From the sequence record NC_007021.1: a stretch of 64,000 bases of DNA. One strand, given 5' to 3'. A program made the translations under genes and the position numbers. Below the pieces are notes generated by a model. That model did not search any database, was not told the DNA's origin, and worked only from the letters and a program-made list of their open reading frames with translations. Origin of the DNA: Staphylococcus phage Twort. This document shows positions 8,101 through 62,542 of this stretch, piece after piece; position 1 is the first letter of the stretch; each line of letters starts with the position of its first letter.

Positions 8101-8585
8101 CGTTTGATTCACTTAAATGGGAGCCTGTAGGTAACTACCAAGATATTGAAATTGATTCAGTTATTAAGAAAGTTAAGTTACGTGCAACATTTAATTCTAA
8201 TAGATATATTTCACCATTATTAAGCGTATCTGACTTAACATTTACAACATTCTTAACTAACCTTAAAGGTAGTTATATTGCACGTGGGGTAGATATGAGT
8301 GAAGCACCGTTTAATACTATTAGACTTAGTTATGAAGCTTTCTTACCTCAAGGAGCAACGGTAACACCTAGATATTCAGTAGATGGTGGATTAACATGGA
8401 AAGAATTTAGTAAACCTGCTACAAAGACTAAAGCTAACAATGAATTTACTAGACACGTGATTGATGAAAAAACAAACTCATTGTCTAAAGATAAAAAACT
8501 TAAAGTTAGATTAGACCTTGCAACTAAGAACAGTTTCTTACGACCACGAGTACGACGACTAATGGTTACAACTAGAGATGAGTAA
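5130..8585 (+). CDS. adsorption-associated tail protein / large tail fibre (1151 aa)
   Basis: Size and position match the ~1150-aa adsorption-associated tail protein of SPO1-/Twort-like phages. AAGGTG RBS. Confidence 0.5.
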   Translation: MALNFSGSPYLDRFDPTKNRTRVLFNPDRPLQQSELNELQSIQTYYLKNFGDAVFKDGDKVSGMGFTLDTGNILKVNPGYVYLNGKVRYYESNSSVKLTKVGREEVGIKLTERIVTADEDNNLLDQTSGVPSYFSKGADRVQEDMVLTVNDPSSATIYVFQDGELYIQASNPEYDRINKVLAERTYEESGSYKVEGFEIFSDAEGKGGDTVPVTVDSGIAYVLGYRVNKPVSTRLNLQKSYDLGTAENESTIYNNSSKIITLANKPVKQVNRVTGQVLVEKESVSRDSVGDTVDYLANNTAFEIVKVWTETSPGVTTKEYKQGVDYRLTNGQSVDWSLGGEEPKGGTTYYVSYKYNRRMESGKDYALKTSGEGANKYWYLDFNTSGTKPIDQSVVLVDYNYYLARQDLIVLDKDGNIKALKGEPNILRNVTPPLQHDPFTLQLGYVTVFPDSDATECYTQSIERLSMESLQKMKTRIDNLEYNQALNALDDGAMEGQNPLTLRSVFSEGFVSLEKADVTHPEYGVAMSFEDSEATLQYTTSVNDPNLLTDSSNIHNWGRIVSAPFTEERTIYQPLASETLNVNPYNIPNKQGKLKLTPSEDNWIDEENVTINQFGKSKVVNTRRWWVHPEASAKRNAKARAEQAKIELDNGLEFGSSFEKWRASATGTMTEVGHKTLEEMIEFIRQRDVKFEVTGLHPNDNNLVLYFDGVRAPITPDAGYRKGTEEGSIIANAKGTAKGKFTIPAGIRCGNREVSLKNENSVSSTTYLAHGRKKINQEIILRTRVTVNLIDPLAQSFQYDENRIISSVGLYFASKGDANSNVTIQVREVGNQGFPTKTIYGEQVVNSSDIKVSNNASAETRVHFDDPIMVEAGKEYALVILTENDEYTMWVGTRTKPRIDKPSETISGNPYARGVLYSSSNASAWTIHQNSDLKFGIYTAKFNDTAQIEFEEMTDVKGDRLVLMSTYLTPENTGCTWEMKVITDAMNDGTTFDSLKWEPVGNYQDIEIDSVIKKVKLRATFNSNRYISPLLSVSDLTFTTFLTNLKGSYIARGVDMSEAPFNTIRLSYEAFLPQGATVTPRYSVDGGLTWKEFSKPATKTKANNEFTRHVIDEKTNSLSKDKKLKVRLDLATKNSFLRPRVRRLMVTTRDE

Positions 8586-49884: not shown

Positions 49885-50994
49885 ATGATAACGAAAAAAG
49901 TTAGACTTAAACCTACTAAACAACAGGAGTTAAAATTACGTAAATCAGCAGATATAGCACGATTTATATATAATTGGACTTTAGCAAAACAACAAGAAAA
50001 TTATAAACAAGGCAATAAATTTATACAAGATTCTGTGTTAAGAAAAGAAATAACACAATTAAAGAAAACTGAAGAGTTTAGATGGTTAAATGAAGTAAGT
50101 AATAATATTCCTAAGCAAGCAGTTAAAGATGCTTGTAATGCTTACAAAAGATTTTTTAAAAAACAATCTGGTTTTCCTAAATTTAAATCTAAAAAGAAAA
50201 CAAGACCTAGTTTCTATAATGATACACAAAAACTAAAAGTAAAAGAAAAATCAGTATTATTAGAAAAAGTGGGTTGGGTTAGAACATCTGAACAATTACC
50301 TGTAGGTACTAAGTACTACAATCCTAGAATCACTTTTGATGGTAAATATTGGTATATAAGTGTTTCTATTGAAGAAGAAAATAAATATGAAGAACTAACA
50401 AACGAATCTTTAGGTATTGATTTAGGAATAAAAGAATTAGCCGTATGCTCTGATGGAAGTATTTATGAAAATATTAACAAAACAATAAGAGTTAAAAAAC
50501 TAGAAAAACGATTACGTAGATTGCAACGTAAGGTATCTCGTAAATACCAAAATAATAAAGAAGGGAGTACCTTTGTCAAAACTTGCAATATTATAAAACT
50601 TGAAAAACAAATTAAACTCTTACAACGAAGATTGTCTAACATTCGTAAAAACTATTTACATCAAACAACAACTTCTATAGTGAAAACCAAACCTAGAAGA
50701 ATTGTTATAGAAGATTTGAATGTAAGTGGTATGATGAAGAATAGACACTTAGCTAAAGCAATACAAAAACAAGGATTCTATGAGTTCCGTAAACAACTAG
50801 AATATAAGTGTGGAAGAAAAGGTATAGAACTTGTTATTGCAGATAGATTCTTTCCTTCTAGTAAAACATGCTCTAATTGTGGTAACATCCACAAAAACTT
50901 AAAACTATCAGATAGAATATTTAAGTGTGACTGTGGTTTTAGTATTGATAGAGACCTTAATGCTAGTATTAATTTAGCTAATTATAATATTTAG
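49885..50994 (+). CDS. tnpB: TnpB (IS200/IS605-IS607 family OrfB, RuvC-like with C-terminal zinc finger)
   Basis: C-terminal SKTCSNCGNIHKNLKLSDRIFKCDCGFSIDRDLNASINL, typical TnpB CxxC...CxxC plus the RuvC-III motif DxNA(A/S)xNI. The N-terminus MITKKVRLKPTKQQ is typical. Confidence 0.8.
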   Translation: MITKKVRLKPTKQQELKLRKSADIARFIYNWTLAKQQENYKQGNKFIQDSVLRKEITQLKKTEEFRWLNEVSNNIPKQAVKDACNAYKRFFKKQSGFPKFKSKKKTRPSFYNDTQKLKVKEKSVLLEKVGWVRTSEQLPVGTKYYNPRITFDGKYWYISVSIEEENKYEELTNESLGIDLGIKELAVCSDGSIYENINKTIRVKKLEKRLRRLQRKVSRKYQNNKEGSTFVKTCNIIKLEKQIKLLQRRLSNIRKNYLHQTTTSIVKTKPRRIVIEDLNVSGMMKNRHLAKAIQKQGFYEFRKQLEYKCGRKGIELVIADRFFPSSKTCSNCGNIHKNLKLSDRIFKCDCGFSIDRDLNASINLANYNI

Positions 50995-51171: not shown

Positions 51172-51372
51172 ATGTTAACTATTCTAGTACTCATTTGGGT
51201 ATTACTATTTTTAACTGTTTTATTTAATATTAAAGTAGGGAATATTTTTATTCTAGGTGATTATGTAGAATTTAAAGACAAATTTGTGGCAGTATCGTTC
51301 TTATTATTTTTATTGCTGTCTATGTTAATTGGTTTAATAATTATTCTTAAAGGAGTGTATGGACAATGGTAA
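51172..51372 (+). CDS. small membrane protein (2 TM)
   Basis: 66 aa, two hydrophobic helices. Confidence 0.4.
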   Translation: MLTILVLIWVLLFLTVLFNIKVGNIFILGDYVEFKDKFVAVSFLLFLLLSMLIGLIIILKGVYGQW

Positions 51373-51691: not shown

Positions 51692-51722
51692 CTAATTAAG
51701 ATAAGAAAAGGAGATGTTTCAT

Positions 51723-52286
51723 ATGAAAAAATTATTTATGGTAGGAAGTTTAGGTCTGATGTTATTCGTAGGAGGTTGTGGTACTACAGAGCATAAAGAA
51801 GGTTCTCTGGAATCTAACACTAATGAAGTTGTAACAACAGAACAAAGTACAACACAAGAGTATAATGGAAGTAGTGAAGGTGGAAACGGAAACCCTAATG
51901 CAAATGTAACAACTGACCCAAGTGAAAAATATTTATCTGACTTTTTTGAGTCTAGGGCACAAGGAACAATATTAGATAGATTAGACCGCTATGCAGAATT
52001 AGTAGGTAAAATTAATAACCCAGAGGAAAACGTAGAAGCAGAAACATTACAATATGCTATTAAGAATATGGACACTTATGTAGAAGAGTTACCTGTTGAA
52101 ACAGAAGACGATGCTAAGGCACAAGAACAACTAAGACAAATGGTTCAATACTATAAGCAAGCAAATGAAAACTTTAAAGAATACCAAGATACTGGTGATA
52201 TAAATAAACTAAATAAAGGTAACGAAATGTATAATGAAGGATATACTTTAGAAGTAGAAGTAAAAAGAGGGACTAACTTAATTTAG
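51723..52286 (+). CDS. lipoprotein
   Basis: MKKLFMVGSLGLMLFVGGCG is a signal peptide plus lipobox (VGGC). RBS AAGGAG lies 10 nt upstream of the ATG at 51723. Confidence 0.6.
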   Translation: MKKLFMVGSLGLMLFVGGCGTTEHKEGSLESNTNEVVTTEQSTTQEYNGSSEGGNGNPNANVTTDPSEKYLSDFFESRAQGTILDRLDRYAELVGKINNPEENVEAETLQYAIKNMDTYVEELPVETEDDAKAQEQLRQMVQYYKQANENFKEYQDTGDINKLNKGNEMYNEGYTLEVEVKRGTNLI

Positions 52287-55157: not shown

Positions 55158-55490
55158 ATGGCAAGAGTAAAAATTTATAACGTAATTGAGAAAATGTGTA
55201 TAGAAAAACTAAAGGAAGAGGTGTATGATGAAAATATTGATGCTTTTTCTAACTTGAATAGACATAAGTTTCAGTTAACTTTACACTACTGGAAAAATAC
55301 AAATGACCCACATTATAATAACTTACCTGATAAACTCGTATTTAAAGGTACTTATAAAGAGTTATATGAAAAGGCGTATGGTAGTGGGTTAATTGAATCT
55401 GAATATGCTTTTGCAAGTTCACTTAAAAAAGAAGAAAAGTATGACTCACTAATTCAAATAGAAATAAAAGAAGTAGAAATATTAGAATAA
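55158..55490 (+). CDS. hypothetical protein
   Basis: 110-aa ORF with AAAGGATAG RBS. Confidence 0.4.
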   Translation: MARVKIYNVIEKMCIEKLKEEVYDENIDAFSNLNRHKFQLTLHYWKNTNDPHYNNLPDKLVFKGTYKELYEKAYGSGLIESEYAFASSLKKEEKYDSLIQIEIKEVEILE

Positions 55491-56463
55491 AGAATATTGA
55501 GTTAGCTTAATAAAAAGAATAAAGTCTTAAAAATCCACTATATATAAAGTATATAGTGGTTTTGTTGTAATATAAGAATAAATAAACTAAATATATATAA
55601 AAAAATAGTAAAAAGATATAAAGATATAAAGATAGGAATAGGTATATAGTAGATAAAAGGAAAGACTGAAATACACTAACCTAGTATATTATACATAGTA
55701 AATATATATATGTATATATAACTTAAAGTATAATAATAATTATATACACTGATACGTATAGTAATAAATACCTATAATTAAAAATAAAATTAAATAAGTA
55801 AAGATAACTAAATTAAAACCAATTAAAAGAAAACGAACCCCAGAACTTTTTCTTATATATAAGAATATGTAGTAGAAAAAGAAAAAGAAGAAAGAAAGAT
55901 AGCTAGAAGAATAGAGTTATTGTAAAGAAAGTAATTAGAAATAAATAAGTGAATAAATAAAGGTATAAGAGGGAGTAGTGTAAAAGAATAAATAATAGAA
56001 GAAGTAAATATAGATACCCTATAAGCATAATAAGCAATGTAAATAAGAAACAATGTAAGTAACTATACAATAAGTAATAGGTAATAGGTAATACAATAAA
56101 CAATAAAAACTAATAGTAAATAACAATACAATAGCAATAACAATACAATAGACAAAGAAACAGATAATACAAACCCCAGAACTTTTTCGACCCTCCGTCC
56201 CGTCCTACTTAATGTAGTATACGGTTATATTATGTTTGAAATATAGATATTTATTATACTTTACTTACTTTAATTACTGTATAATGCTTAATATTCTACA
56301 CTTAATCTATAGTAATATACTAGTTATCTACCTTAATGTATTAGTTATTTATACTAATCTGGTACTATCAATGCTTTATTCTACCTTTATATACTATTAC
56401 TTATATATACTCTTATATGGTTTCCGCTTCTACACTTTTTTTGTATACATGTATATATATGTA

Positions 56464-56492
56464 TTGACATTCTATATAGTATTTGGTATACT
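56464..56492 (+). promoter_or_regulatory. promoter TTGACATTCTATATAG-...-TGgTATACT
   Basis: TTGACA at 56464-56469, TATACT at 56487-56492. Same -35 context as 57308. Confidence 0.55.
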
Positions 56493-56522
56493 TAATATAT
56501 ACTTATAAGGAGGGAAGTTATT

Positions 56523-57269
56523 ATGTTTAATGAAGAAACTACAAATAGAACTAGATTAAGTAAGGAAGATATAGATAATAGGATAAAAGAGCGTAAGTTG
56601 TGGATGAGAACTAAATGTAAGGAAGGTAAACACACAACATTCAGCAATTGTATTATCGAGAATATAGACTTAAGTGGTTATTACTTACGTGGATTAGATT
56701 TCCATGGGTCTAGGTTAGAAAATGTTAATTTAAGTAACGTAGACTTGTCAGTTGCAGACCTATCAGGTACTGAGATTATTAATTGTAATTTACATGGTAC
56801 TAACTTCAAGGAATCTAATATAAATAATAGTGAGATATTTGCATGTAGAATTGAAGATGTAGATATGAGTTATACTGACCTTCGTAATTCTACTATAATT
56901 ACTGAAATATATAATACTAATTTTAATTATACTAATATGAATCATAGTCATTTAAAGTGTGCAACATTAGTAGGATGTACGTTTAAAGATACTAGTTTAC
57001 GGCATGCAGTATTAGATTATGTTAGGGTAGCAGATACTGAGTTATCTAAAGCAAGTTTAAATAGTGCTGTTATCTTAGATATTGAGGGTCTAAATGTTTA
57101 CTCTGTTGGTAATAATGGTAATCCTATTATTTATATTCCTAAATATGATAAAGTATTTGCGGAGCACTGGACTTCTACACTAGATGGATTTCTAAAGCAA
57201 GGACTTGAAATGGAAGAAGAAAAAGGTAAGATTGAGAAAATTTATGAATTCTTTAAGGTATGTAGGTAG
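56523..57269 (+). CDS. pentapeptide-repeat protein (Qnr/MfpA-like right-handed beta-helix)
   Basis: Tandem A(D/N)LSx-type pentapeptides, e.g. NIDLSGYYLRGLDFHGSRLENVNLSNVDLSVADLSGTEIINCNLHGTNFKESNINNSEIF... Confidence 0.7.
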   Translation: MFNEETTNRTRLSKEDIDNRIKERKLWMRTKCKEGKHTTFSNCIIENIDLSGYYLRGLDFHGSRLENVNLSNVDLSVADLSGTEIINCNLHGTNFKESNINNSEIFACRIEDVDMSYTDLRNSTIITEIYNTNFNYTNMNHSHLKCATLVGCTFKDTSLRHAVLDYVRVADTELSKASLNSAVILDIEGLNVYSVGNNGNPIIYIPKYDKVFAEHWTSTLDGFLKQGLEMEEEKGKIEKIYEFFKVCR

Positions 57270-57297
57270 AAGCGGTAAACTATTCCGCTTCTTTTTT
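57269..57297 (+). terminator. rho-independent terminator GAAGCGG-taaactatt-CCGCTTC followed by TTTTTT
   Basis: Sequence inspection. Confidence 0.7.
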
Positions 57298-57307
57298 ATA
57301 TTTATTG

Positions 57308-57336
57308 TTGACATTCTATATAGCAAGTAGTATAAT
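57308..57336 (+). promoter_or_regulatory. promoter TTGACATTCTATATAG-17-TATAAT
   Basis: TTGACA at 57308-57313, TATAAT at 57331-57336. Confidence 0.6.
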
Positions 57337-57366
57337 AGGCTTATAAACAAGTAGGAGGAGATTATA

Positions 57367-57774
57367 ATGAAAATTAAAAAGCAAGTAACATTTAAAGAAC
57401 TAATGGGGTTATACTATAAAGGAGAATTAGAACAGGGAGATTATGAAGCCGAACAAGGCAATACTATTGTAAAGGTATCTTGTGGTATCATAGGAATATC
57501 TTTCTCACAATTCTATAAAAATAAAGATATGTTTGATTCATTTCCATATATAAAGAATGATACACTGTTTACTATAGAACAAGAAATAGGTTTAAATACT
57601 AAGTTAGATAAAGTGGTTGTAGTTTATGAAGATACGGCTGATATAGAATATGATATAAGTGTTAACAATATTTTAAGACGCTATGATTTTGATGCGGAAG
57701 ACTATATTGTATCTATCAACGTAGAAGTAAATAATGAATTACAGACAGTATGGAAAGATGGGAAGTTACTATGA
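57367..57774 (+). CDS. hypothetical protein
   Basis: 135-aa ORF with AGGAGGAG RBS. Confidence 0.4.
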   Translation: MKIKKQVTFKELMGLYYKGELEQGDYEAEQGNTIVKVSCGIIGISFSQFYKNKDMFDSFPYIKNDTLFTIEQEIGLNTKLDKVVVVYEDTADIEYDISVNNILRRYDFDAEDYIVSINVEVNNELQTVWKDGKLL

Positions 57775-57959
57775 TTAGTAGTATATTAATGGTTATTATA
57801 ATTAGTATTATTGTATTAAGTACAGCGTGTTACTTATTTTATTTGATGGTAGAAGCGGTTAAGTATGAAGATGTATTTCTGTTTATAGCTACGCTTGTAC
57901 TTAATATAGTGTACTGGTTAACGATTATCTTTCTTATTCTTAAATACTTTGGGTTGTAA
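57750..57959 (+). CDS. small 2-TM membrane protein, YFGL family member 1
   Basis: MISSIL...NIVYWLTIIFLILKYFGL. Paralog of the genes at 59929 and 60579. Confidence 0.5.
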   Translation: MERWEVTMISSILMVIIISIIVLSTACYLFYLMVEAVKYEDVFLFIATLVLNIVYWLTIIFLILKYFGL

Positions 57960-58004
57960 AATAAACTATACGAATATTGTTAAGTAATAATAAGGAGTGG
58001 TATA

Positions 58005-58502
58005 ATGGTAAATAAAAATTTGTCAGAATCAATTACTAAAGAAGTTAAAGATAAGTTACATGAATTGGTAGATAATTTAGATATTGAGGTAGAATATAAA
58101 TTTAATCATGCAGGCAGTGTAGAAGTAGATGTTAAGTTTGATATTAAAGAAAAACCTTTTACATTAGATAGAGATATTCCTGTAATAAACACGGCTTATA
58201 GTAAACTAATTGGTACGCTAGAAGAAGATAATAAGAAATTAATGGGAAATATTATCGAGGAGAATAAAAAGAAATATCCTAAGGAATTAGATAAGTATGA
58301 TTTAAGTAAGTATAATTTTGAGTTTAATGATATAGATAAGGATACTAGGGAAGATACTAGAACTGTATATATTAGATTTAACGATGGTAGGGTACTCCCT
58401 ATATTCTTAGAAGACCTTATATTCTACTTATCTATTAGTAAAGAAGGAGACACGTTATCTTTTAATTATGAAGATGTAGATATAGTTGAATTAATGGGTT
58501 GA
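58005..58502 (+). CDS. hypothetical protein
   Basis: 165-aa ORF with AAGGAGTGG RBS. Confidence 0.4.
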   Translation: MVNKNLSESITKEVKDKLHELVDNLDIEVEYKFNHAGSVEVDVKFDIKEKPFTLDRDIPVINTAYSKLIGTLEEDNKKLMGNIIEENKKKYPKELDKYDLSKYNFEFNDIDKDTREDTRTVYIRFNDGRVLPIFLEDLIFYLSISKEGDTLSFNYEDVDIVELMG

Positions 58503-58559
58503 CAAAGTGTTAAGTACATGGTATAGTAAGTACATAAGAATAGTAGGAGGAATTTAATT

Positions 58560-58793
58560 ATGGACTTAATTAGTTATTTAGAGAATGAAGGATTTGAAGT
58601 AAGTAAAGAACATGGGTATGAAGGAGATTGTTATTTAGTAAAAAGTATTGAAGGTAATGAAGTACCTATTGAAATTATCAGTGACACTGTTATTATTACT
58701 GATGATAATGGGACAGATATTCATGTTGATGCTAATAAACCTAAAGCTATTGTAGATGTACTTTTAGATTTAACAAGCACTGATTATGAGTAA
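58560..58793 (+). CDS. hypothetical acidic protein
   Basis: 77-aa ORF with AGGAGGAA RBS. Confidence 0.4.
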   Translation: MDLISYLENEGFEVSKEHGYEGDCYLVKSIEGNEVPIEIISDTVIITDDNGTDIHVDANKPKAIVDVLLDLTSTDYE

Positions 58794-58816
58794 TTGTATA
58801 TTAGGAGGAATTAATT

Positions 58817-59119
58817 ATGTTTAAAAAGTCAAAAGAAAAGAATAAAGTAGAATATGGTAGAAACGAAGGTAGCCATGTACCACAAAATAAGGCATTAGTT
58901 CAGTTAGTTAGAGATATTACTGGTGGTTTTGTTTTACCTCTTACAGATGGTCATGAGTATGTAGTAGTAATTCGTGGTACTAAGACGCTAGTATTTAATG
59001 TTGTAGGTGAAAGAATTTACTTAAGTGGTTCATTATTAGGTAAAGATTTTTCTTGTGCTGACAACAAAAATAATCCTGTTTCTATTGAAGTAGTTAAATT
59101 AATTTCTAAATTAGTATAA
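58817..59119 (+). CDS. hypothetical protein
   Basis: 100-aa ORF with AGGAGGAA RBS. Confidence 0.4.
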   Translation: MFKKSKEKNKVEYGRNEGSHVPQNKALVQLVRDITGGFVLPLTDGHEYVVVIRGTKTLVFNVVGERIYLSGSLLGKDFSCADNKNNPVSIEVVKLISKLV

Positions 59120-59127
59120 AGTATATT

Positions 59128-59155
59128 ACCGCTTCTATTATTGAAGCGGTTTTTA
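59128..59155 (+). terminator. rho-independent terminator ACCGCTTC-tattatt-GAAGCGGT followed by TTTTT
   Basis: Sequence inspection. Same GAAGCGG stem family, in opposite arm order. Confidence 0.7.
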
Positions 59156-59324
59156 TTATACCTTACTATGCTCTAATTCTTTCATATTTAACGTATATAG
59201 GGTTTTATATGTATTTAGGTATATTTATATTAAAAAGCACTATCGTTTGTTATACGTTGTCTATAGAGCATATAGAGGGTATTAAAAGAATACAAAATTT
59301 ATAGTAAATAATTGAAATTAATGT

Positions 59325-59353
59325 TTGACATTCTATGAGTTATAGCTTATAGT
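59325..59353 (+). promoter_or_regulatory. promoter TTGACATTCTATGAG-17-TATAGT
   Basis: TTGACA at 59325-59330, TATAGT at 59348-59353. Confidence 0.5.
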
Positions 59354-59386
59354 AAGTATATAGAAGAAATTAGGAGGAGATTAATT

Positions 59387-59731
59387 ATGGAAGTTTTTGA
59401 TTTAAAAAAGTTTGTTGTTGATAACGGCTTACATATACAAGAAGGTTCTATGTCATATTATGAGTATAAGGTAGATTCTAGCTATTCTATTAGGGTTGTT
59501 AGTAGATTGGCATATTGTGATGTTATTGTGTTTGTGTATAAGAGTAAATACATCCATAGTATTAATACTACCTATGAGGAAGATAAGGTAGAAGAATTAG
59601 AAAAGCTATTAGAAGAAAGTAAGAATATTTCAGTAGTTATGGACTATTACTTAATTAAACGTATGGAAAGGAAACGTATTGAAGCGGAAGAACAAAGAAA
59701 ATTAGATAAATTTATGTTAAAAGGAGAATAG
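59387..59731 (+). CDS. hypothetical protein
   Basis: 114-aa ORF with AGGAGGAG RBS. Confidence 0.4.
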   Translation: MEVFDLKKFVVDNGLHIQEGSMSYYEYKVDSSYSIRVVSRLAYCDVIVFVYKSKYIHSINTTYEEDKVEELEKLLEESKNISVVMDYYLIKRMERKRIEAEEQRKLDKFMLKGE

Positions 59732-59767
59732 TGTTTGATATATAATAAGTATTAGGAGGTGTAACTT

Positions 59768-59941
59768 ATGATTTTAATTTTAGTATTACTTACAATTAAT
59801 CTTATATGTTTAATTATTATTGGTAATAGTATCTTAGAATTAGAGGGGAAGCGGGCTTTAGTTAACTGTATCTTATTCTCAGTACCAGTGATTGCTATTG
59901 TTGTATGTATATATAGTTTAGTATTGGAGTGTTGGTTATGA
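59768..59941 (+). CDS. small membrane protein (57 aa), not in ORF track
   Basis: ATG after a TAGGAGGTG RBS. MILILVLLTINLICLIIIGNSILELEGKRALVNCILFSVPVIAIVVCIYSLVLECWL. Stop overlaps the next start (ATGA). Confidence 0.4.
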   Translation: MILILVLLTINLICLIIIGNSILELEGKRALVNCILFSVPVIAIVVCIYSLVLECWL

Positions 59942-60126
59942 TTAGTAGTATTATAGAGTTCATTGTAATAAGTATAATTAGTGTAGTTTCAGTAGGTGTG
60001 TTTGGGTTTATGTGGTATGCAGTATTTTATACTAAGGATAAAGTATTACTTTCAGTTGCTATACTACTAACAGTTATTCTTGGATTATCTGGGCTTGGTG
60101 CTACATTAGATTACTTTGGATTGTAG
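59929..60126 (+). CDS. small 2-TM membrane protein, YFGL family member 2
   Basis: Ends ...LGATLDYFGL. MISSII motif near the N-terminus. Confidence 0.45.
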   Translation: MLVMISSIIEFIVISIISVVSVGVFGFMWYAVFYTKDKVLLSVAILLTVILGLSGLGATLDYFGL

Positions 60127-60352
60127 GAGTGGGATTATGATTGATGTTATTATGTTAATTCTAGCTATTATCAGTATACCTTTGTATATATGGTTAGGTA
60201 ATGAGTATTATAATTGGGTGCTTAATAACTATAATAAGAGTAGTGATATAGTACAAGCATGTATATTTGGTGGTTTATTTATGGCTATTGTTATAAGTTT
60301 ACTTGCTATATGTGGAAGTATTAGTAATATAATAGGAGGGTTTATAATATGA
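60116..60352 (+). CDS. small membrane protein (2 TM)
   Basis: 78 aa, hydrophobic. Confidence 0.4.
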   Translation: MDCRSGIMIDVIMLILAIISIPLYIWLGNEYYNWVLNNYNKSSDIVQACIFGGLFMAIVISLLAICGSISNIIGGFII

Positions 60353-60567
60353 GTAGTTATGTACATCATGTACCAGTCGTTACACCTCATAATGATGGTG
60401 GTGCTTCTACTGTAGATAGTAGTAATGGTAATCATACTGTAGACCATAAAGAACAATGGGAACCTGGTATGAGTGAGCAGGAGGCTATGTATACTGTATT
60501 TGGTATTGCATTATTTATTATGATAGTTGTTCTTGTTTTTATTATCGTGGTTAAACTTAAAAGATAG
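60349..60567 (+). CDS. small C-terminally TM-anchored protein
   Basis: 72 aa with a C-terminal hydrophobic helix. Confidence 0.4.
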   Translation: MSSYVHHVPVVTPHNDGGASTVDSSNGNHTVDHKEQWEPGMSEQEAMYTVFGIALFIMIVVLVFIIVVKLKR

Positions 60568-60578
60568 GAGTTGAGATT

Positions 60579-60767
60579 ATGATTAGTAGTATTTTAGTTA
60601 TAGTAGTAGGAGTTATCTTGTTTTTAGGAATGAGCTTTAACCTTATTTGGTTATTAGGGAATGCACTTAAAGAAAAGGATAAATATTTAATTACTTTAAG
60701 TGTTGTATGTAATGTAGTGTTTTGGTTATCTATAATTGTTATAGCTTTGAAGTATTTTGGATTATAA
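60579..60767 (+). CDS. small 2-TM membrane protein, YFGL family member 3
   Basis: MISSILVIV...NVVFWLSIIVIALKYFGL. Confidence 0.5.
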   Translation: MISSILVIVVGVILFLGMSFNLIWLLGNALKEKDKYLITLSVVCNVVFWLSIIVIALKYFGL

Positions 60768-60874
60768 TGTTTCCTAGAATCAAAATTTAGCCGTTTTTCG
60801 TAAAGGCTACGTGCAATCTACAGACGGGAATTATTTTTAGGTAGTATTTATCCTAGAAAATAGAATGAGTGTCA

Positions 60875-60906
60875 GAAGCGGTTTTCTATTCCGCTTCTTT
60901 TTTTTA
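60875..60906 (+). terminator. rho-independent terminator GAAGCGG-ttttctatt-CCGCTTC followed by T8
   Basis: Sequence inspection. Confidence 0.7.
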
Positions 60907-60914
60907 TATTATTG

Positions 60915-60943
60915 TTGACAGTGGTTAGGGTAAGTAGTATAAT
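60915..60943 (+). promoter_or_regulatory. promoter TTGACA-17-TATAAT
   Basis: TTGACA at 60915-60920, TATAAT at 60938-60943. Confidence 0.6.
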
Positions 60944-60963
60944 TGTAGTAGAGGTGATAAGGT

Positions 60964-61914
60964 ATGGATAAACATTTTAAAGGTAGAGAAGTTAATGTTG
61001 AAACTGGGGAAACTAGATATATGAACCCTATTTGGAGGCCTTTATTTGACCCTTCTGAGTACATATCTAAAGATATTATTAGTGGTAAACTAGAACGTAA
61101 AGAATTTGAAGAAAAGTTTTTTAATTTTATTACAGAGTTTCAAAGTAACCTAAGAAATAAGTATAATGCTAGTTTTGATGAAATAGGTAGATTACTAGTT
61201 CTAATGACTTATACAAATTATAGGGATATAGAGACGGGTCATCATTATCTGCTAACGGATAATAATAAAGACATGTCAATTAAAAATCTAAGTAAAATAT
61301 GGAAATTAGAGTTACAACAAACAAGGAATGTTAAAAGTATAATGAAGAAGAAAGGTATTATAGGAGAAGATGATGAAGGTTTATATATACCAGACGACAT
61401 TCTTATTAGAGGTAAAATATACCCTAAGGAGAAAAAAGAGTTAAATTACTATATAATATATGACAAACCTATAAGGGATTTGTATAATGGTTTAACAGAA
61501 AGTAATAAAAGAGACAGTGCCAAAGTAGTAGGATTATTTTTGTCTTTAGTACCATTCATTAAAGTATCATCAAGAAAAAAGAAAAATAATGAAAAAGGCT
61601 CTAATAATACTTTAGTTATGTCTGAGTGGGATAACGAAAATAAGCAATATAAACCTATAAGCAAAGTAAAATTATCCGAAGAACTGGGTATAAGTAGAAC
61701 TACAATGGATAGATATTTAGGTATACTCAACGCTAAGTCTAAAGAGGTCACTGGTAGATATTTACTGTATGACATTAAACCAACAGGATTAAACGAATTA
61801 GACAAATCTATTATGGTTATTAACCCTTATTATACTTATACACAAGGAACAGGAAGTAATTCTTTTAATATACTTGAGGAATGGATTAATGAAGCGGAAG
61901 AAAATAGTAAGTGA
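60964..61914 (+). CDS. hypothetical protein with C-terminal HTH (possible initiator/regulator)
   Basis: 316 aa. LSEELGISRTTMDRYLGILN is HTH-like. Lies directly upstream of a 3x 24-bp direct-repeat array. Confidence 0.35.
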   Translation: MDKHFKGREVNVETGETRYMNPIWRPLFDPSEYISKDIISGKLERKEFEEKFFNFITEFQSNLRNKYNASFDEIGRLLVLMTYTNYRDIETGHHYLLTDNNKDMSIKNLSKIWKLELQQTRNVKSIMKKKGIIGEDDEGLYIPDDILIRGKIYPKEKKELNYYIIYDKPIRDLYNGLTESNKRDSAKVVGLFLSLVPFIKVSSRKKKNNEKGSNNTLVMSEWDNENKQYKPISKVKLSEELGISRTTMDRYLGILNAKSKEVTGRYLLYDIKPTGLNELDKSIMVINPYYTYTQGTGSNSFNILEEWINEAEENSK

Positions 61915-61976
61915 TAGTATTTTAAATAGATACTTTATACTATGCGAGTGGTAGTTAGTATATTGTATACATATTT

Positions 61977-62087
61977 GAAAAATTGTCCATTCTGTATTAT
62001 AAGATACACAAGATTAATATAGCTCTGTATATGAAAATTGTCCATTCTGTATTATATTTTGGGAAAAATTGTCCATTCTGTATTATA
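61977..62087 (+). repeat. three direct repeats of GAAAA(A)TTGTCCATTCTGTATTATA (iteron-like)
   Basis: Copies at 61977-62001, 62033-62056 and 62063-62087. Confidence 0.8.
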
Positions 62088-62513
62088 CACATAAATCGTG
62101 AAACCCTTTGAGGGAGTAAGATGAAAGCATAATTTTCATAAGTTTTGCATCTACTTTTGTTAGTGGGATAATACATCTTGAACAGTACCTAACAAAAGAA
62201 TTAAAACCCTATGACTTATCTGAACTATTTCATAGTTCATCTAAGCCACTTACTTTCCAAACCTGCAAAGTAAGCAAAGAGGTGGAGGAATAAAACACCT
62301 TAAAACCGAGGTGTTTTACACCTCCTATTTTATTTATTTAGTAAACACAATAATTAATATTATATATAGTAATAAGTATAGTAAGTGTAATAGTAAAAAG
62401 GTTTTATAGTAAGTATAGATTACTCAAGATTAGTATTAGCATAGCGTAGTGGATTTTTATAATATACTTCTATGTCACGAAAAAACGATTTTCAATTAAT
62501 TACTCTTTATCTA

Positions 62514-62542
62514 TTGACACTCATTCCCTTATACCTTATAAT
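62514..62542 (+). promoter_or_regulatory. promoter TTGACA-17-TATAAT
   Basis: TTGACA at 62514-62519, TATAAT at 62537-62542. RBS AGGGAGG follows. Confidence 0.6.

Follow-up and report, generated by a model that had tools for sequence, protein, structure and literature searches.

What do three very small membrane proteins, alike at both termini and divergent in between, do for a virulent staphylococcal myophage? This question is raised by a locus of Staphylococcus phage Twort, which we analysed within a window of 64,000 nucleotides (nt) of sequence record NC_007021.1; all Twort coordinates given below are those of the window. The genes concerned, here called Y1, Y2 and Y3, lie in the long terminal repeat of the phage, and we consider it about 70% probable that their products are early accessory effectors that act inside the membrane and are engaged in an arms race.

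Three paralogous hairpin genes

All 3 genes are on the plus strand and each has exactly 62 codons: Y1 at 57771 to 57959, which is without annotation in public Twort records, Y2 at 59938 to 60126 (ORF200 or TwortDSMZ_198), and Y3 at 60579 to 60767 (ORF206 or TwortDSMZ_201). A first-pass annotation of the same DNA had described 3 paralogous small membrane open reading frames (ORFs) here, with products that start with MISSI and end with YFGL, and we found this description to be correct except in its sizes of 62–69 amino acids (aa) and its starts at 57750 and 59929 for the first 2 genes. These longer starts are ruled out by ATGA overlaps with the upstream stop codons and by the orthologues, all of which are 62 aa; the public annotation of Y2 is likewise the 62-aa form. 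Aligned from the ATG of MISSI, the 3 proteins match over 62 residues without a gap, at identities of 44% for Y1/Y3 and 31% for both Y1/Y2 and Y2/Y3. Ungapped BLOSUM62 scores of the pairs gave z values of 5.6–10.2 against whole-sequence shuffles, and of 4.2–8.1 when shuffling was confined separately to the first transmembrane helix (TM1), the loop, the second helix (TM2) and the tail. Since the observed scores were reached by 0 of 10,000 segment-wise shuffles, the similarity exceeds what hydrophobic composition provides, and we conclude that Y1, Y2 and Y3 are genuine paralogous genes. Eleven columns (M1, S3, S4, I5, I13, D34, L50, L57, F60, G61 and L62) are invariant in 8 of 8 family members. 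An internal motif, N(I/V)V(Y/F)WL(T/S)II, had been ascribed to the whole family, but is common to Y1 and Y3 only; Y2 has TVILGLSGL in its place.

A collection of 15 billion proteins contains Y1 in neither of its 2 possible lengths, 62 aa and 69 aa, and the genes that flank it, at 57367 to 57774 and 58005 to 58502, carry consecutive numbers (TwortDSMZ_191 and _192; YP_238650 and YP_238651). On both grounds we regard Y1 as a gene that was missed in annotation. Its orthologue P0005 in L003, one of several Twort-like loci used for comparison here (designated by L numbers), is 85% identical.

The first-pass annotation had also called the proteins membrane-directed, and on this point hydropathy and structure prediction agree. 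The grand average of hydropathy (GRAVY) of the Y proteins is 1.3–2.1, and AlphaFold2, supplied with the family alignment, predicted a hairpin with helices at residues 2–32 and 35–60 (mean predicted local distance difference test score of 82.6). The proteins end 5 residues after TM2 in a tail of the form (K/D/N/E)-(Y/H)-F-G-L, with 0–1 charged residues. Lysines number 1–3 in the loop, 0 in the N-terminal tail and 0–1 in the C-terminal tail, a distribution that would place the loop in the cytoplasm and both termini outside, although weakly so for Y1. In this orientation, the conserved motifs at the 2 ends would be brought together on the outer face of the membrane.

A further ORF, at 51172 to 51372 on the plus strand, was considered as a fourth paralogue and rejected: its 66-aa product with 2 transmembrane segments gave no match to the family's hidden Markov model (HMM), and its P value of 0.043 in hhalign was within the range of controls. 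This ORF lies outside the terminal repeat, encodes a K-D-K loop and is conserved in L005; a BLAST comparison computed without composition correction gave E = 1.4e-4.

Distribution, divergence and distant relatives

The Y proteins matched nothing in Pfam (E ≤ 0.1), PHROGs (E ≤ 0.1), NCBIfam or a sequence search of the PDB, and no family among the PADLOC anti-phage defence models matched Y1, Y2 or Y3 at E ≤ 1. In a fold search against viral models, only Twort ORF206 itself was significant; fold matching is uninformative in this case because a helical hairpin is too generic. A profile of the 3 proteins retrieved only 7 sequences from 5.77 billion proteins, including 100% matches to TwortDSMZ_201 and TwortDSMZ_198, and an exhaustive HMMER search of 1.84 billion cluster representatives found nothing beyond the family's own 3 clusters. 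Phage DNA was searched by local tblastn without masking and by unfiltered HMM searches of six-frame ORFs; it should be noted that standard tblastn against 50,697 phage records was blank for Y1 and Y3 because the low-complexity filter masks the query. We also scanned viral, genome and metagenome collections for a DNA pattern in which both conserved ends were anchored 165 nt apart. The IMG/VR scan yielded one true additional viral contig. One genome match and 2 metagenome matches were discarded as chance, their products not being hydrophobic and 2 of them having in-frame stops. The first-pass annotation had allowed that the homologues might prove to be ordinary virion or holin components; this did not occur, no homologue being found outside the staphylococcal Twortvirinae, and the Y family itself appears from these searches to be restricted to Twort-like phages.

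DNA searches assigned the window to the Twortvirinae. In the annotated phage collection, of which Twort is not a member, the nearest record is that of the Staphylococcus pseudintermedius phage vB_SpsM-DH2 (hereafter DH2), with ~84–86% identity where the two can be aligned, and DH2 holds a Y copy that is 74% identical. A comparison of copy number across related phages, as had been proposed at the outset, gave 1–3 copies: 3 in Twort, 2 in L003, 2 in L004 (one of them uncalled), one intact copy plus a remnant of 25 codons in DH2, and one each in L005, L006, L007 and L012. Y2 has a counterpart in all of the Twort-like phages examined, while an intact copy in the Y3 slot was seen only in Twort. The DH2 remnant (L001, 4226 to 4303) reads MISSIISILIWVILLMCAVAMDSIS (MISSIISILIW...) up to its stop and occupies the slot equivalent to Y3, after a gene for a 77-aa membrane protein. 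The uncalled copy of L004, at 8238 to 8426, is intact, stands in the Y1 slot and is a Y1/Y3 mosaic, with Y1-like ends (72% and 92% nt identity) and a Y3-like middle (67% vs 40%). The partner genes vary as well, in that relatives have the 77-aa protein instead of the pair of 71- and 72-aa proteins that accompanies Y2 and Y3 in Twort, and in that the 57-aa gene which precedes Y2 is absent from DH2, L005 and L007.

That 57-aa gene (59768 to 59941, plus strand; ORF227 or TwortDSMZ_197) encodes another protein with 2 transmembrane segments and is a fair internal control for the rate of change in Y2. Between Twort and L003 or L004, synonymous divergence (dS) was 0.32–0.34 for Y2 and 0.23–0.36 for its neighbour. 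In contrast, nonsynonymous divergence (dN) was 0.31 for Y2 and 0.04–0.06 for the 57-aa gene, a five- to seven-fold difference; the dN/dS ratios (omega) were accordingly 0.93–0.97 and 0.18–0.19 (Fisher p = 0.02–0.05). Replacements in Y2 were concentrated in residues 7–32 (TM1) and 49–57 (the end of TM2), with the termini and loop conserved. Together with the L004 mosaic, these rates are evidence for a fast diversification of the Y family that was probably assisted by recombination. Restricted distribution, copy-number flux, the DH2 pseudogene, recombination between paralogues and high dN, taken jointly, point to an accessory role driven by conflict.

Two other groups of terminal-repeat hairpins resemble the Y proteins at a distance. 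One is phrog_17940 (KSAP7 orf127; Remus_017 and Remus_200), a family of 65–66-aa two-helix proteins found only in Silviavirus and encoded in a terminal repeat, as judged from its being listed twice in Remus. Its members start with M-(M/I)-S-S-x-L-M and have a K-x-K-E-V-F loop resembling that of Y1 (in the 66-aa KSAP7 orf127: MMSSTLM..., ...KQKEVF..., ...HMLGM); they differ from the Y proteins in a TM1 that is 4 residues longer and in ending with HMLGM rather than YFGL. An hhalign comparison of the Y family with phrog_17940 gave a probability of 48% (P = 1.8e-4) and a score of 24.1, against 10.3 ± 1.9 for column-shuffled controls (maximum 16.5; 0 of 200 reached the observed score; z = 7.2) and 8.5–13.5 for 6 unrelated hairpins. 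The Y1/Y3 subgroup alone gave a probability of 78% (P = 1.8e-5; 35% identity over 54 columns), while the Y2 subgroup alone gave no signal in hhalign, and HMMER alone made no connection between the Y family and phrog_17940. The second group is TreB of the kayviruses (phrog_3204), a 61-aa hairpin whose gene is second in the terminal repeat of phage K; the protein starts with M-I-x-x-x-I-L, enters its loop with S-I-R-Y and ends with G-I. A link between TreB and phrog_17940 came from hhalign (probability 67%, P = 5e-5, score 26.6; null 11.1 ± 2.3, maximum 19.5, 0 of 200) and, independently, from an HMMER match at E = 0.0015. When the Y family was compared with TreB directly, the result was not significant (hhalign probability 2–3%, P = 0.02; no PHROG match at E ≤ 0.1), so that the relation of the two is only transitive, and we have set aside direct Y–TreB homology as unproven.

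Gene order bears on the same question. The gene for phrog_17940 adjoins a phrog_6981 gene, as do Y2 and Y3. In Twort this phrog_6981 gene (60137 to 60352, plus strand; ORF179 or TwortDSMZ_199) encodes a 71-aa protein with 2 transmembrane segments and 46% identity to KSAP7 orf126, and the order is Y2, phrog_6981 gene, 72-aa gene, Y3; in KSAP7 it is TreB homologue (orf125), phrog_6981 gene (orf126), orf127, such that the TreB homologue occupies the slot held by Y2 in Twort. From the profile tests and this synteny, we think it somewhat probable that the Y family, phrog_17940 and TreB make up one divergent superfamily of terminal-repeat hairpins in the Twortvirinae. The KSAP7 gene next in number, orf124 (L008, 3037 to 3219), is annotated as a 'putative nuclease' and its family, phrog_13453, is labelled nuclease; this label looks like an annotation artefact, since the 60-aa protein is a hairpin of 2 transmembrane segments with GRAVY 1.1.

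Terminal repeat, promoters and translational coupling

In the 139,739-base-pair (bp) DSMZ record, exact-sequence look-up found a single accession for each TwortDSMZ protein up to _189 (55158 to 55490), and 2 accessions for every protein from _190 (56523) to _205 (63378). This switch from single to double accessions places the start of the long terminal repeat within the non-coding stretch of 55491 to 56522 (55.5–56.5 kb), and thus the Y genes ~1.3–5 kb inside the repeat. Consistent with this, the DH2 orthologue of Y2 is found at both ends of the DH2 record, 138.5 kb apart. The Y genes therefore share the terminal-repeat location of the 'Tre' or host-takeover compartment of the Herelleviridae, and they also share its host sigma-A-type promoters and its small ORFs in operons, as described below. 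They are in this sense an uncharacterised addition to a known class of early terminal-repeat genes.

Sites of the form TTGACA-N17-TATAAT with no more than one mismatch occur 16 times in the window, compared with 2.2 expected, and all are on the plus strand. Seven of the 16 lie within 56464 to 62542 (56.4–62.6 kb), although one of the matches, at 61460, is inside a 316-aa ORF and may lack function. A perfect 12/12 promoter at 57308 to 57336 precedes Y1 and the 135-aa soluble protein gene upstream of it (TwortDSMZ_191, phrog_467). An 11/12 promoter at 59325 to 59353 begins the operon that would contain Y2 and Y3. Its extended -35 element, TTGACATTCTAT(ATAG), is common to the promoters at 56464, 57308 and 59325, which suggests a regulatory feature beyond the sigma-A hexamers. 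These 11/12 and 12/12 sites, together with the terminal-repeat context, back the first-pass placement of the genes in an early region of the phage.

From 59325 to 60905, the predicted operon comprises genes for a 114-aa soluble protein (59387 to 59731), the 57-aa protein, Y2, the 71-aa protein, a 72-aa protein (60349 to 60567; TwortDSMZ_200, phrog_22787 'membrane protein') whose N-terminal part is polar and whose single transmembrane segment is C-terminal, and Y3, all on the plus strand, so that 5 of its 6 products are small membrane proteins. It is closed downstream of Y3 by an intrinsic terminator at 60874 to 60905 (AGAAGCGG, a 9-nt loop, CCGCTTCT, T8), which the scanner missed because of the length of the loop, and the next perfect promoter starts at 60915. 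The first-pass annotation had noted the hydrophobicity of the ORFs at 59768, 60116 and 60349, and only the second of its starts needs revision: in place of the TTG at 60116, we prefer the ATG at 60137, which gives the annotated 71-aa form and has its own AGGAG. The cluster of small membrane ORFs that it described is a tight run at 59768 to 60767, but the interval between Y1 and Y2 also has 4 soluble ORFs (starting at 58005, 58560, 58817 and 59387).

Y2 and Y3 have AGGAG/GGAG sites 8 nt upstream of the start, and Y1 is without a strong Shine-Dalgarno sequence. The TGA stop of the 135-aa gene is inside the ATGA start of Y1, and that of the 57-aa gene is inside the ATGA start of Y2; the 72-aa gene overlaps the 71-aa gene in the same manner. 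These stop-start overlaps indicate that Y1 and Y2 are translationally coupled to the genes that precede them. We observed, moreover, that the Y copies preceded by a partner gene (Twort, L003, L004) all have the ATGA junction and Ile as residue 2, whereas the 3 copies without the 57-aa partner (DH2, L005, L007) have ATGG and Val2, a pattern that fits a true constraint from translational coupling.

The first 14 nt of the genes, ATGATTAGTAGTAT, are identical in Y1, Y2 and Y3 despite overall DNA identities of 51–57%. Both serine codons in this segment are AGT in 9 of 9 sequences, AGT being 31% of the serine codons in the long ORFs of the window, and the 2 remaining frames of the conserved 5' string both contain stops (TGA; TAG TAG). 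The 3' motif of the family, unlike the 5' end, varies synonymously. A coupling requirement accounts for the A at position 4 of ATGATTAGTAGTAT but not for the remaining nucleotides. Possibly, though we consider it improbable, the hairpin gene is a portable, self-coupling cassette that can be shuffled: its 5' end, ATGATTAGTAGT, would end the upstream ORF whatever the insertion and allow termination-reinitiation, the conserved ends would serve as homology arms, and the variable transmembrane core would be swapped among paralogues and between co-infecting phages, as exemplified by the Y1/Y3 mosaic of L004. The products would then be hypervariable specificity proteins for exclusion or counter-defence, encoded in the DNA that staphylococcal myophages express first, with TreB as a single-copy relative.

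Several other features of the repeat and its surroundings were recorded. The non-coding stretch with the left boundary of the repeat contains a direct repeat of 15–17 bp, (A)ACCCCAGAACTTTTTC, at 55838 to 55852 and 56174 to 56188, and the 321 bp between the 2 copies are 72% purine on the plus strand; the same stretch has a hairpin at 55535 to 55559 and numerous short tandem arrays rich in AT, and its role may be that of a terminus or packaging signal. In the terminal repeat, the first gene (56523 to 57269, plus strand) encodes a 248-aa pentapeptide-repeat protein (PF00805, E = 3e-19), which the corresponding regions of DH2 and L003 to L007 lack. Pentapeptide-repeat proteins can be DNA mimics, and we might speculate that this one is an early anti-nuclease or gyrase-directed factor. 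The 316-aa ORF mentioned above (60964 to 61914, plus strand; TwortDSMZ_202) follows the perfect promoter at 60915, has a weak match to HTH_11 (E = 0.0018) and a match to phrog_9501, and is absent from the equivalent regions of other Twort-like loci; it may be an early regulator. Outside the repeat, just upstream of it, a 369-aa ORF (49885 to 50994, plus strand) encodes a TnpB RNA-guided endonuclease of the IS200/IS605 type (NCBIfam NF040570, 326 bits, E = 4e-97), in a strictly virulent myophage. A 190-aa ORF (51714 to 52286, plus strand) has a lipoprotein-type signal, MKKLFMVGSLGLMLFVGGC, with the lipobox LFVGGC, and its N-terminal part weakly matched lipoprotein models; since the protein collection does not include this 190-aa form, the gene may have been annotated from a different start. 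Lipoproteins encoded by phages often serve as exclusion factors.

Possible functions and comparison with known systems

In phage K, the terminal-repeat units are transcribed first and show the highest induction in the first 2 min, and the Tre proteins are without assigned roles (PMC9241854, PMC11598898). By analogy with the terminal repeats of phage K and SPO1 (PMC9241854, PMC11598898, PMC6873191), the Y genes would be transcribed by host RNA polymerase in the first minutes of infection. Their products have almost no exposed or soluble surface and so must act by helix-helix contacts in the membrane or at its outer surface. We propose that the hairpins would be inserted with the lysine-bearing loop in the cytoplasm and the conserved ends at the outer face, where they would occupy or alter a membrane component that is used for crossing the envelope; the altered component might then shield the newly infected cell from entry of a second phage's DNA or from a membrane-acting insult, and with paralogues that have diverged, a wider range of targets would be covered. 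This kind of superinfection exclusion or envelope protection, resembling the role of T4 Imm, is a tentative choice that we rank a little above inhibition of a host membrane machine. Host takeover and superinfection exclusion had both been suggested in the first-pass annotation, and both are plausible.

Several points weigh against this interpretation. The positive-inside rule is the sole basis of the topology, which for Y1 is ambiguous, and with only ~9 residues outside the membrane, the surface for blocking an incoming phage would be tiny. An omega near 1 can also be expected from relaxed constraint on lipid-facing residues, and the Fisher tests are marginal and drawn from 5 or 6 genomes. TreB, which differs from the Y family in being single-copy, is 70–100% identical among kayviruses, a degree of conservation that suggests a fixed partner and purifying selection more than an arms race. 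Literature searches found no expression or transcriptome data for Twort, nor any study of the function of TreB or of Twort ORF200, ORF206 or ORF227. Finally, Pfam and PADLOC, at the thresholds given above, connected the Y sequences neither with T4 Imm nor with any family of defence or exclusion proteins.

Inhibition of a host machine is the nearest competitor, though we would sooner doubt it than adopt it. Here, the transmembrane helices would bind an essential host membrane machine early in infection (divisome, wall or teichoic-acid synthesis, a transporter or a protease) and inhibit or redirect it, as SPO1 gp56 does for division, with the paralogues matched either to different host targets or to one target across staphylococcal species. 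The SPO1 host-takeover module is alike in its terminal redundancy, strong sigma-A promoters and small proteins in operons, and host growth is attenuated by several of its members, gp37 and gp56 among them, both of which are small membrane proteins (PMC6873191). The Twort-like phages do not all infect the same staphylococcal species, DH2 being a phage of S. pseudintermedius, and this could drive divergence; the conservation of TreB within kayviruses fits a conserved host target. Yet the Y proteins are unlike gp56 in both sequence and architecture, and loss or truncation of copies in close relatives, with omega near 1, would be less expected if the target were essential and conserved. It is rather unlikely that the Y proteins oligomerise with one another and with the 57-, 71- and 72-aa proteins in a phage-built channel, patch or scaffold, an assembly that would be compatible with either exclusion or takeover as its outcome. 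The predominance of small membrane proteins in the operon, the overlapping or close frames, which favour a fixed stoichiometry, and the recurrence in KSAP7 of the order hairpin, phrog_6981 protein, hairpin would all suit such an assembly, but Y1 is in a separate operon beside a soluble protein and the partners are replaced or missing among relatives, as described above.

A role as holin, antiholin or another component of lysis timing, which the first-pass annotation had entertained in the form of regulators of holin-like activity, is very unlikely. The size and the 2 transmembrane helices do resemble those of class II holins and pinholins; however, the Y tail is without a charged hydrophilic C-terminal domain, no lysin domain was found in the neighbouring genes, which are terminal-repeat genes, the promoters are of early type, and no holin family matched in Pfam, PHROGs or NCBIfam. 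The Twort holin and endolysin (HolTW/PlyTW) are described as lying elsewhere in the genome. Least probable of all is that the ORFs are spurious or decaying and without function. In its favour, the genome is AT-rich and the ORFs are both hydrophobic and very short, Y1 is unannotated and poorly provided with a ribosome-binding site, and one pairwise omega is near 1; against this, the 62-codon frame is kept in at least 9 distinct sequences at 51–94% nt identity, conservation of the termini is accompanied by synonymous changes at the 3' end, the other pairwise omega values are 0.09–0.6, and Y2 and Y3 have proper ribosome-binding sites, with ATGA coupling at Y1 and Y2.

The terminal-repeat genes are the first to be expressed in K-like and, presumably, in Twort-like staphylococcal myophages, which are the main therapeutic phages against Staphylococcus aureus, and almost none has a known function. 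To these genes we add a previously unannotated one of Twort, Y1, the observation that the Twort repeat is unusually rich in tiny membrane proteins (6 of the 16 ORFs in its repeat region, vs 2 of 21 in the phage K repeat), and a testable link among the Y family, a Silviavirus family and kayvirus TreB. Should the hairpins control superinfection or host envelope functions, they would have a bearing on the compatibility of phages in cocktails and might reveal new membrane targets in staphylococci. The Y proteins are short enough for direct synthesis and testing.

By BLAST, the Twort repeat genes showed no homology to those of the phage K repeat. The SPO1 host-takeover module occupies the same compartment and has strong host-type promoters and operon-arranged small proteins, some of them membrane-anchored (PMC6873191), but the Y family showed no sequence similarity to the 28-protein SPO1 set (best HMM E = 0.16–0.49; gp56, E = 0.49). 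Moreover, gp56 has one transmembrane segment with soluble tails of 37 and 24 residues, whereas the Y proteins are hairpins with almost no soluble part. The class II holins and pinholins have ~60–90 aa and, like the Y proteins, 2 transmembrane helices. T4 Imm (PF14373) belongs to a Gram-negative host system, unlike that of Twort, and no Pfam family matched the Y proteins at E ≤ 0.1; Imm is nonetheless small, expressed early and embedded in the membrane, and the phage that encodes it is a virulent myovirus.

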